Origin: a virus
Lineage: Duplodnaviria; Heunggongvirae; Uroviricota; Caudoviricetes
Strand: one strand, 5' to 3'
DNA: 35,686 bases
Virus record (IMG/VR): IMGVR_UViG_2923302340_000008
Part shown: positions 1,659-4,130 of the stretch, in pieces
Numbering within the stretch: the first letter of the stretch is position 1
How the letters are laid out: each line of letters starts with the position of its first letter
Made by a program: the position numbers and the translations under genes
Notes under the pieces: model-generated
Told to the model about the DNA's origin: nothing
The model's input: only the letters and a program-made list of their open reading frames with translations
The model's database searches: none

Positions 1659-4130
1659 TTAAGAATCAGCCTGACTCGGGATCAGTTTTTGCCAGATAAC
1701 TGAAACGTATTTTGCCTGGTAACGGGCGTCATCAAGTGCATTATGGCGCTCACCTTCGAATGGAATAGCCGTTCTGGCATCGAAGTCTATGGCTTTCCCC
1801 AGCTCAACGATTGTGCGTACATCGCGATCGTTGTAGTAACGCCACGGACAGGGGATCCCCTGCCGTTCGTATGAACGGCGCAAAATCGTGTTGTCGAAGT
1901 TGGCTCCATTTCCCCAGACCTGAACAAAAAATTCACCGGAGTTTTCGTCGATAAATTCCCGCAATTGTAACAGTGCATCATCTAACGGGATTTCATCGGT
2001 CATAATGGCAGATTGCGCTTCGCGTGATTGCTTAAGCCACCATTTAATGGTGTCCCGATCAATGACTCCGCCAGCAGTTTCCAGATCGATAGTCTTACTA
2101 AATTCCGGTCCCATATCTCCGGTTTGCGGATCGAAAAATATTGCACCTATTGAGATGATCGGGGCATCAGGATTTTTTCCCATGGTTTCAAGGTCGATCA
2201 TTAGATGGTCACACGTCCTGCTGGTGGATGTGATTTCGTGATGACCGTTCACCTTAATTGAGTGATCTGCCGTCTCGCCAGTTTCATTATCGCTATCGTG
2301 ATGCTGATTGCCGCCAGTGTTCTCCTTGTGTGGATGTTCAGCGCCTTCCATTTCCTTCGGATCATCTTCCTGAACTTCAACCTGATACTCTTCATCGAAT
2401 GTTTCCTGGTATGTTGCGTCGCCCATCACCGCGCCACAATCAGGGCAGTTGCCGCCGCCGGTCTGACCGCAGGCGGTGCAGACTTTTTCCACTTCCTGTT
2501 GCGCCACTGGTTCAGGCTGTTTCGTTTCTGGCTCGTTTTGTAACGCATTTGGGCTGTTTTGTTCCGCTTTTTGGTAGTTCCGTTCCGATTCATGCTGGTT
2601 CTGGTTCACAGAATCGCGGGTCTGGATCCCCTTAACCCATTTCGGATCATTCGGGTCACTAATCCCTTCAACAAATTCACCACGTGATGCAGCAAGCAAC
2701 TTATCGGCGTCAGGCTGGCTGATATTGGCTGCCTGCATAATTTTGTTTACTTCGTCAGCGGTAACTTTTATCGGTTCTGGTTGTTCTGAATCTTCAGCGG
2801 TATCTACATTTTGCGGTAAGCCCGTGTATGTGCCATTTTTTCGGGCAAAATATTCTTCTTTAGTGATTTCAGTGGCGCCAGCAGCCAGTGCCTTATCCAG
2901 ACCAGAAAGTTTGTTTGCGCGACCGTATTTTTCTCCGTCCTTATCTGCGAAGAGGAAATAGAACGGCCCCTCACGCTCTACAGATGGTTCAGCTTCCGGC
3001 GCGGTTTCATTTTTTGGGATATCAGATACCTCAGTTTCCACTGCATCAGTTTGTGTTTCTGATGACTGGAGAACATCAACAGTGCCCAGGTCTGTTTCTT
3101 CATTCTCAAACACGCCCTTTGTCGTCAGGTATTCAGTAATGTATTTGTTCAGTGCCACAGGGTCTTTGTGAATGTCGATCGGACGTTCACGGACAAGGCC
3201 AAAAATAGTCTGGCGGTCGTAGCGAAGGGCATCAGGCTGTTTGCGCATTGATGCCGAGATACGCTTCCAGTCTTCACGGTCGTTGTCGATAACTTCATTT
3301 TTTGCCCAGCGATGGATGCTGCCGTCAATGTTTCCGGCATCCACATCACCAGGCCAGAGAGCGTAGGCCAGTTCGTCATCCAGTGTTTTCCATGTCTGCT
3401 TGTATTCGCGATGAATGGCAGCAATGACCGGGCTGAGTTTTCCTGTTGAATTTTCAGTGTGCTGTTGATTGGCTCTGGCGCGGGCGAGATCAACAACAGA
3501 CGTGTATTTTCCGGTTTCCTTGCGTTCACCTTCGCGACGTTTTTTCCAGATGCGCATCTCTGCCTGAATTTCGGGCCATTTGGCACCTGGCTTACATTTA
3601 TGCTTAACCCACCCGATGGCATGCAGCTTAAGCTCCGGATACATGGCGTTAACTTCTGGCATTTTCATCAACGCTTCAACGATATGTCCGTCGAATGTTG
3701 CCATGTCTTCCTGCAACAGTTCCTGCGCGCTAATCACCATATCAACGGTGATGTTTTCACATGTGTCGAACTTAACCATGACAGCGTTCTGTACTTCAGG
3801 GGCCAGCTTGTCAAAAGTGACGTTTATCGGATCTGATTCAGTCTCAACCGGGACAAAGGAAGCAGACTCCTCATCCCAGCGGTTTTCCTGCATATATTCA
3901 GCATCCCAGGAATCGAGGGCAGGGCGGGGTATGTCAGGTTTATCCTCGCAGACAATAAATTTATAAGCGCAGTCCTGAGCAGCCGTATAATGTTCCAGGA
4001 ACTGCCAGTGAAATTTTGCTCGAGCACGGCGTTCGTCGCCAGCTTCAATGGCTGTGGCTACAGCCACAGCGCCTTCTTCCCTTGTTGCCAGTTCGTCAGG
4101 AATAGCGGCGCAAATAAAGACTTTACTCAT
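1659..4130 (-). CDS. Phage exonuclease with C-terminal DnaQ-like (DEDDh) 3'-5' exonuclease domain and internal Cys4 zinc ribbon
   Basis: 823-aa ORF. The C-terminus carries DLETMG…GNGANFD…[13 protein letters not shown] motifs typical of DEDDh exonucleases. A [16 protein letters not shown] zinc-ribbon lies mid-protein. A GAGG RBS lies about 10 nt upstream. It occupies the exo position of the leftward early operon. Confidence 0.75.
   Translation of the reverse strand: [823 protein letters not shown]

Follow-up and report, generated by a model that had tools for sequence, protein, structure and literature searches.

What does an exonuclease of the DnaQ type do at the place that recE holds in the Rac prophage? 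The question is raised by IMG/VR virus record IMGVR_UViG_2923302340_000008, a tailed-phage sequence (Caudoviricetes) of 35,686 nucleotides that we refer to as the window. At positions 1659–4130 on its minus strand (stop codon included) lies an intact ydfE-type gene for an 823-residue protein, which an original prediction had singled out from the letters alone as a large exonuclease in the exo/recE slot, with a DEDDh, DnaQ-like C-terminal domain of neither lambda-Exo nor RecE type. The open reading frame (ORF) begins with an ATG, a GAGG Shine–Dalgarno sequence ends 9 nucleotides 5' of that codon, and start and stop are identical in RefSeq Escherichia coli LF82 and in GenBank phage Tritos, so the predicted protein and its boundaries stand. 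So does its slot, as the gene adjoins the excisionase and integrase genes (xis–int) and has ydfD upstream. Because homology to RecE over residues ~246–625 is combined with a DEDDh C-terminus, the protein is a nuclease-swapped relative of RecE.

The nuclease and its RecE-related scaffold

In a domain search, residues 642–813 (1692–2207, minus strand) were assigned to a DEDDh (DnaQ-like) nuclease family and not to a non-nuclease fold, matching Pfam PF16473 (Rv2179c-like) with E=2.1e-67 and 226.7 bits (cutoff 27) over profile positions 2–177 of 177. Five catalytic residues, D646, E648, D746, H796 and D801, align with D7, E9, D119, H186 and D191 of T4 DexA; the residues of motifs Exo I (DxE), Exo II (D) and Exo III (H-x4-D) are thus all kept, as they are in E. 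coli EcD, epsilon34 gp34 and F1055 gp28. Identity over the domain is 58% to F1055 gp28, 56% to epsilon34 gp34, 37% to EcD and 23% to DexA, and the nearest solved sequence is DexA (PDB 8KEL, E=6.6e-8). The EcD-like gene used here was recovered via the published primer sequence and encodes 189 residues, with A78 as the paper states (PMC12153337). In an AlphaFold2 model of residues 440–823 the nuclease domain reaches a predicted local distance difference test (pLDDT) score of ~70–90, with a whole-model mean of only 54. The best Foldseek matches of this low-confidence nuclease model are 3'hExo, oligoribonuclease (Orn) and REXO2, at probabilities of 0.8–0.97 and E-values of only 0.015–0.3, and all top matches are DEDDh exonucleases. 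Judging by these motifs, the predicted nuclease would be expected to work with 3'–5' polarity.

It is over the remainder of the protein that the original prediction, which overlooked a kinship with RecE, has to be corrected. Residues 246–625 match positions 271–602 of 877 in NF007259, the ExoVIII equivalog model, with E=1.3e-84, which makes this region, Cys4 motif included, homologous to the non-nuclease region of RecE; the total score of 285 bits stays below the equivalog cutoff of 1269. In a BLASTP comparison with a Rac-type RecE, residues 262–625 align with RecE 295–608 (E=8e-61), and identity rises to ~85% over the last ~150 aligned residues (~470–625 here, 470–608 in RecE). The similarity ends, at residue 625 and RecE 608, exactly at the start of the RecE nuclease, and the PD-(D/E)XK module of RecE, when mapped onto the 823-residue protein, gave no match. 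Compared with RecE, then, the nuclease has been exchanged, and in this allele the first ~245 residues as well, with the rest RecE-related.

The models and alignments together suggest an architecture in which a folded N-terminal scaffold is connected to a terminal nuclease by a mostly disordered acidic tether of ~300 residues carrying short conserved motifs. The scaffold starts with a YdfE-type region (residues 1–205; 3516–4130, minus strand), made of a small alpha/beta subdomain and then a helical one, and continues with a helical middle domain (residues 246–345; 3096–3395, minus strand) that BLASTP and module mapping find in RecE and in nearly all family members. AlphaFold2 folds residues 1–205 and 245–340 with a pLDDT of ~90 (~88–92 in the middle domain). 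Next comes a variable linker rich in D and E (residues 346–465; 2736–3095, minus strand), which aligns poorly both with RecE and with an allele of RecE_N type and is the most divergent module between alleles (dN, the nonsynonymous divergence, is 0.12–0.18). The model of the C-terminal half begins at residue 440 and leaves linker residues 346–439 outside any model; in it, residues 440 to ~650 are mostly disordered save for short helices, with a pLDDT below 50 for residues 440–455 and of ~50–57 for a short helix at ~457–466.

The segment shared with RecE (residues 466–625; 2256–2735, minus strand) likewise has mainly low pLDDT, short helices excepted, and consists of a conserved motif that includes PNDPKWVKG, a Cys4 knuckle and an acidic tail. 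The knuckle, C551-x2-C554-x7-C562-x2-C565 (2436–2480, minus strand), is kept in 16 of the 21 family members that cover the region, a K-12-type RecE fragment among them; by these alignments it is a feature of the shared scaffold, not peculiar to this protein, and it may bind zinc. The first ~650 residues hold 126 D+E against 71 K+R. The original description of ~600 acidic N-terminal residues containing a Cys4 motif was accordingly right about the acidity and the cysteines, and needs correcting in one respect, as the region comprises two confidently folded domains and a long disordered linker.

The gene is neither rare nor overlooked, being already annotated in thousands of genomes as 'exonuclease', '3'-5' exonuclease' or '3'-5' exoribonuclease'. 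Its product matches phrog_2082 ('exonuclease') over the full length, and PF27430 (YdfE_N) and PF27432 (YdfE_C) are precomputed on P0001, an 823-residue protein 94% identical to it, and on all close homologues listed, so that membership of this exact protein is by proxy. In K-12 strain NCM3722 only nucleotides 1–767 of the gene (~255 codons) are left, annotated 'exonuclease, incomplete' and cut by IS2, after which comes a truncated integrase beside rspB; this bears out the earlier statement that K-12 ydfE is truncated. The remnant in BL21(DE3) is shorter still, nucleotides 1–495. The ydfE-type gene is thus very common in E. coli and annotated but uncharacterised. As for the suggestion that the window holds an intact version of a poorly characterised protein, intactness is borne out, and the protein is widely annotated, with a PHROG of its own and Pfam families named after YdfE.

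A modular family, its spread and its selection

Residues 1–640 were searched against 1.84 billion representative proteins, and five modules of this protein and two of RecE were mapped onto the matches. The middle domain (246–345) is near-universal among the long family members, and segment 466–625 is frequent, whether the C-terminus is a DEDDh domain, a RecE nuclease or something else. N-termini come in two domain types, the YdfE type found here and the RecE type, and all four pairings of a YdfE- or RecE-type N-terminus with a DEDDh or a RecE PD-(D/E)XK nuclease are seen. A second E. coli allele, of 813 residues, has residues 245–823 in common with this protein and another N-terminus. Downstream of the gene of a sister that combines the YdfE-type scaffold with the RecE nuclease stands a RecT-family gene (E=2e-36).

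A third family group has neither nuclease. Its conserved C-terminal domain matches stand-alone proteins of ~243 residues, named as Rad52/Rad22-family members, with E~1e-60, and these exceed the Pfam threshold for Rad52_Rad22, on which we base the assignment of the sister domain to the Rad52 family. Direct evidence from the domain itself is faint: Pfam gave Rad52 at E=0.013 only, a profile search of PDB sequences returned no match, and an hhalign comparison with epsilon34 gp36 was not significant, though the signature helix was aligned. A kilR-like gene and xis–int flank the gene for the scaffold–annealase sister, which holds the same early-left position. Sisters built from a YdfE-type scaffold, a Rad52-family domain and a coiled-coil-like C-terminal tail were noted at locus L038 (6001–8370) and as proteins P0134, P0129, P0139, P0155, P0170, P0187, P0188, P0220 and P0237; their PHROGs label 'exonuclease' (phrog_2489) looks like a mis-annotation, and at L038 a gene for a Sipho_Gp157 family protein follows. 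Taken as a whole, the sequence comparisons establish that effector domains are interchangeable on one scaffold.

Of 5426 complete E. coli genomes, megablast detects the gene in 4798, and 3536 hold at least 80% of its length. It is also carried by phages: the isolated phage Tritos encodes a 98.8% identical protein, and the early regions of the isolated phages mEp460, HannyBb and PhiR42_1 are 95–98% identical. Comparison with four other alleles, in all of which the reading frame is intact, gave a ratio of nonsynonymous to synonymous divergence (dN/dS) of 0.13–0.33 for the whole gene, 0.07–0.18 for the folded N-terminal and middle domains (middle 0.08–0.18) and 0.18–0.45 for the linker, conserved segment and nuclease. 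With every module below 0.5, these ratios indicate purifying selection on the gene. That the ORF is a spurious annotation or a pseudogene in decay was considered and rejected on conservation, dN/dS and presence in viable phages. The synonymous divergence (dS) itself varies several-fold between modules of one allele pair (for strain A36, 0.16 over residues 466–625 and 1.07 in the nuclease), and such differences were seen in the comparisons with L041, L042 and L043. Uneven dS of this kind points to recombination between alleles inside the gene, which makes it a recombination mosaic whose breakpoints lie close to the boundaries of its modules.

The early-left operon and Chi sites

Directly downstream of the exonuclease gene lie xis, encoding an excisionase of the DUF1233 type (1335–1586, minus strand; PF06806, E=1.6e-31), and then the gene for a tyrosine integrase (20–1315, minus strand; Pfam Arm-DNA-bind_2 and Phage_integrase); no recT-like gene intervenes before xis. 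Upstream are early-left genes of the dicBF type (4224–4826, minus strand), namely ydfD (DUF1482), dicB and the small RNA (sRNA) DicF, recognised through Pfam DUF1482 and DicB and through Rfam DicF at 72.5 bits. The earlier claim that no Bet- or RecT-like annealase gene is adjacent therefore survives on both sides, and none of the RecT, Erf, Rad52, Sak4, single-stranded DNA-binding protein (SSB), Gam and Abc2 families turned up among the other window ORFs that were scanned. As Zheng et al. 2025 define the lambdoid Rec module, the locus falls outside it, with a lone nuclease gene beside xis–int and dicB and ydfD as neighbours.

Beyond dicB and DicF the window continues with a DUF1391 (ydfA-like) gene and a CI/DicA-like repressor gene that faces a divergent Cro/YdaT/replication region. 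The minus strand from ydfD to the exonuclease gene was scanned with a crude consensus for sigma-70-like promoters; none was found, with fewer sites than in shuffled controls, so the gene is most simply the last before xis–int of a repressor-controlled early-left operon. A promoter of its own that would permit expression in the lysogen was considered, and none was found on the coding strand. DicB and DicF occupy 4412–4826; the mechanical ORFs for dicB (97 residues) and ydfD (81 residues) are longer than the annotated 62–63 residues, which places the real starts internally.

Chi (GCTGGTGG) occurs 10 times in the window, eight times on the plus strand, where 0.74 sites are expected from shuffles. 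This enrichment fits the class of lambdoid phages described as having no Rec module and being rich in Chi (PMC12315714). The sites fall within 2220–2227, 11432–12081 and 18824–26060, one of them antisense inside the exonuclease gene, and five (three plus, two minus) lie in 650 bp within a DUF968 (ydfU-like, HNH-related) gene at 11391–12440.

Other features of the window were noted in passing. The prophage is defective: a gpA-type terminase gene (22404–24506) and a lambda-type portal gene (24643–26223) are followed by an IS3-family transposase gene (26340–27386, minus strand), the isrC sRNA (27399–27521, minus strand) and then lom, stf and tfa, the intervening head and tail genes being gone. 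This defective stretch spans 22404–32377, and the right prophage end reaches a host gene for a transporter of the MFS (major facilitator superfamily) type. An IS009 RNA family match (32145–32343) overlaps the end of the tail-fibre assembly gene, and a cspA-type thermoregulator element (19639–20055) lies upstream of a cold-shock-like gene. A 518-residue ORF resembling KAP-family P-loop NTPases (8622–10178), in a patch with a G+C fraction of 0.32 between the replication genes and hok/sok (10240–10414), has the appearance of an inserted moron or candidate defence gene and no PADLOC match. Finally, a cargo block at 12991–17123, 3' of the Q antiterminator gene, carries a lipocalin gene (Blc-like, minus strand) and genes for a 2-thiouracil desulfurase/DUF1722 protein, an IS3-family transposase (minus strand) and an AraC-family regulator.

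Possible function and comparison with known systems

With the architecture, catalytic residues, RecE homology, modular family, purifying selection and genomic context of the gene established, we can ask what the protein does. The reading we favour, with about even confidence, is that it is a tethered 3'–5' DNA-end-processing exonuclease of the phage early-left operon, made in lytic development and delivered by a RecE-type scaffold. The gene would be transcribed together with dicF–dicB–ydfD from the repressor-controlled operon, in which case the protein should be made upon infection or prophage induction but not while the lysogen is quiescent. We infer that the scaffold may deliver the nuclease to whichever partner or DNA site the scaffold of RecE serves, and that the nuclease could there trim 3' single-stranded ends or flaps of intermediates in phage replication and recombination. 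Strand pairing would be left to host RecBCD–RecA, on which a Chi-rich phage that encodes neither an annealase nor an anti-RecBCD protein probably relies. We count in favour of this reading that all three effector types found on the scaffold, the DEDDh nuclease, the RecE nuclease and the Rad52-type domain, would act in recombination.

Several points weigh against it. Recombination needs the very 3' tails that a 3'–5' exonuclease degrades; nucleases of the DnaQ type are usually inhibitory to it, and lone DnaQ-type genes near int are not counted as Rec-module genes (Zheng et al. 2025, PMC12315714). PF16473 is named after an exoribonuclease, and NCBI calls many copies '3'-5' exoribonuclease'. EcD, an E. 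coli homologue with 37% identity, has its role in defence against phages (PMC12153337). Furthermore, the scaffold fold gave no pointer to function, the argument from sister fusions to recombination domains would be one of guilt by association, and the Chi enrichment speaks of the phage and not of this protein.

The kinship with DexA and EcD raises another prospect, that of an HREX-type exclusion or defence nuclease whose DEDDh domain degrades the modified DNA (5-hydroxymethylcytosine, 5hmC, or similar) of competing T-even-like phages and so protects the induced or infected cell. Kang et al. 2025 solved the structure of T4 DexA, the closest solved sequence to our domain, and plasmid-borne EcD, in which the catalytic residues are the same, cleaves 5hmC-containing T4 DNA and protects cells against T4 (PMC12153337). 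Of the tetramer-forming pair Ser87/Asp90, the loss of which is associated with a dimer-only state and which aligns with P715/D718, the Asp is retained and the Ser lost. We nonetheless think this role unlikely. The residues proposed to read 5hmC are absent, W152/D169 of DexA and W132/E145 of EcD being replaced by Y766/K779, with gaps that make the second position less certain. The domain is nearer to the epsilon34 and F1055 exonucleases than to EcD, the RecE scaffold would be left unexplained, and a repressed early operon with no promoter detected for the gene itself does not make a standing defence of the lysogen. PADLOC-DB 2.0 (2023 library, before the HREX report) also gave 0 defence families at E<=0.01 for the exonuclease, and two candidate genes nearby drew no match either. 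An exclusion role would, on the other hand, be in keeping with the exclusion activity reported for DicB, whose gene belongs to this operon too. That the substrate is RNA, so that the protein would process or degrade host or phage RNAs in lytic growth, for example dicBF operon transcripts or sRNAs, is suggested by the exoribonuclease Rv2179c that named the family and by the NCBI names of many orthologues, by top structural neighbours that act on RNA, and by co-transcription with the DicF sRNA. Those structural matches are weak in E-value and come from a low-confidence model, every scaffold relative bears a DNA-recombination effector (the RecE nuclease with recT, or a Rad52-type annealase), a stand-alone homologue lies inside a DNA recombination module, and the nearest characterised phage members, DexA and EcD, act on DNA (PMC12153337). 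An RNA-directed role thus seems quite improbable to us, and DNA is the likelier substrate.

An early-operon gene that is widespread among temperate phages could also serve anti-defence or host takeover, by destroying retron multicopy single-stranded DNA, linear oligonucleotide signals or primed DNA ends, or by scavenging host DNA as T4 DexA does (PMC12153337). Both the RecE scaffold and the recombination-type fusions of the sisters speak for a different role, and we regard this one as very unlikely. Nor are temperate lambdoid phages known to break down host DNA, which we also count against it. The least probable reading, to which we give hardly any credence, is that of a functionless, decaying passenger in a defective prophage, a view prompted by the loss of this prophage's head and tail genes to an insertion sequence (IS) element and by truncation of the gene in K-12 and BL21. 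The frame is uninterrupted, here as in thousands of genomes, dN/dS is 0.07–0.45 in all modules, the catalytic residues are all conserved and viable isolated phages carry the gene; the selection analysis largely refutes it.

A wider proposal, which we put forward only tentatively, concerns the scaffold. The YdfE/RecE scaffold and its tether might form a general delivery platform on which temperate phages swap PD-(D/E)XK, DEDDh or Rad52-type effectors for one common target in host or phage, the DEDDh version being a strategy of recombination or replication that dispenses with a phage annealase and cooperates with host RecBCD and Chi. Such a platform, if real, would help to explain what the ~600 N-terminal residues of RecE do. 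Work on the locus would also clarify how the many annealase-less lambdoid phages deal with their DNA ends, and the protein could offer a tool of opposite polarity for recombineering. Were the nuclease EcD-like instead, the newly reported modification-dependent exclusion would extend to a very common prophage gene. Here one scaffold is naturally joined to three recombination-type effectors, and one such combination survives intact in roughly two of every three complete E. coli genomes as well as in phages that can be cultured, which makes the question of the RecE non-nuclease region directly testable. The main value of the locus is that it opens the N-terminal region of RecE to experiment.

Among the known systems, DexA and EcD share the Pfam family and the DEDDh catalytic residues of our protein, and differ from it in being stand-alone proteins of lower identity. 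The name-giver of PF16473, Rv2179c (RNase AS) of Mycobacterium tuberculosis, belongs to the same Pfam family, and the solved Rv2179c chain gave no direct sequence match at E<=10. In contrast to our protein, Rv2179c is a small stand-alone exoribonuclease. We found no paper describing this gene as a nuclease-swapped RecE, and none on the scaffold as a carrier of Rad52-type annealases or on the Cys4 motif as a shared scaffold feature. Judging by titles and abstracts, the papers found on ydfE were gene lists only, and a search for DEDDh with RecE in prophages returned nothing relevant; no paper linking Rv2179c to prophages was found.

Closer in sequence are epsilon34 gp34 and F1055 gp28, which share the catalytic residues and the early-left operon; they are scaffold-free proteins of ~180 residues, whereas here the domain is fused behind ~640 residues of RecE-like scaffold. 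The epsilon34 exonuclease gene lies between the SSB and abc2 genes and adjoins gp36, a 'putative recombination protein' (L009, 3775–4482) that scores as a Rad52/22-family annealase at E=4.7e-25. Epsilon34 thus has a Rad52–SSB–exo–Abc2 module, in contrast to the surroundings of our gene, where no annealase, SSB or Abc2 was found. DnaQ-like 3'–5' nucleases are known from lambdoid recombination modules, and the epsilon34 gene is regarded as a genuine member (Zheng et al. 2025, PMC12315714). The same study keeps two further sets outside the Rec module and unexplained, lone DnaQ-type genes near int in lambdoid phages without a recognisable Rec module and 'RecE-2', RecE-related proteins without the RecE nuclease domain; it also finds lambdoid phages without a Rec module to be rich in Chi, one of which, LLS, grows better with RecBCD (PMC12315714). 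Zheng et al. treat the lone DnaQ genes and RecE-2 separately, whereas here a lone DnaQ gene is itself a fusion to the RecE scaffold. The nuclease-free scaffold proteins found here, which may correspond to RecE-2, carry a Rad52-family domain.

The nearest relative in design is RecE of the Rac prophage. The two share the early-left slot near xis–int, a homologous middle domain, the near-identical segment of motif, Cys4 knuckle and acidic tail, large size and a long non-nuclease N-terminal part (PMC11611040). They part in their first ~245 residues, which here are of another, YdfE-type domain, and in what follows the gene, recT in Rac and xis (DUF1233) and int here. The non-nuclease region of RecE is called a domain of unknown function in reviews, yet it improves linear–linear recombineering (PMC11611040). 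In RecE that region precedes a PD-(D/E)XK nuclease working 5'–3'; in our protein its counterpart precedes a DEDDh nuclease of the opposite expected polarity.

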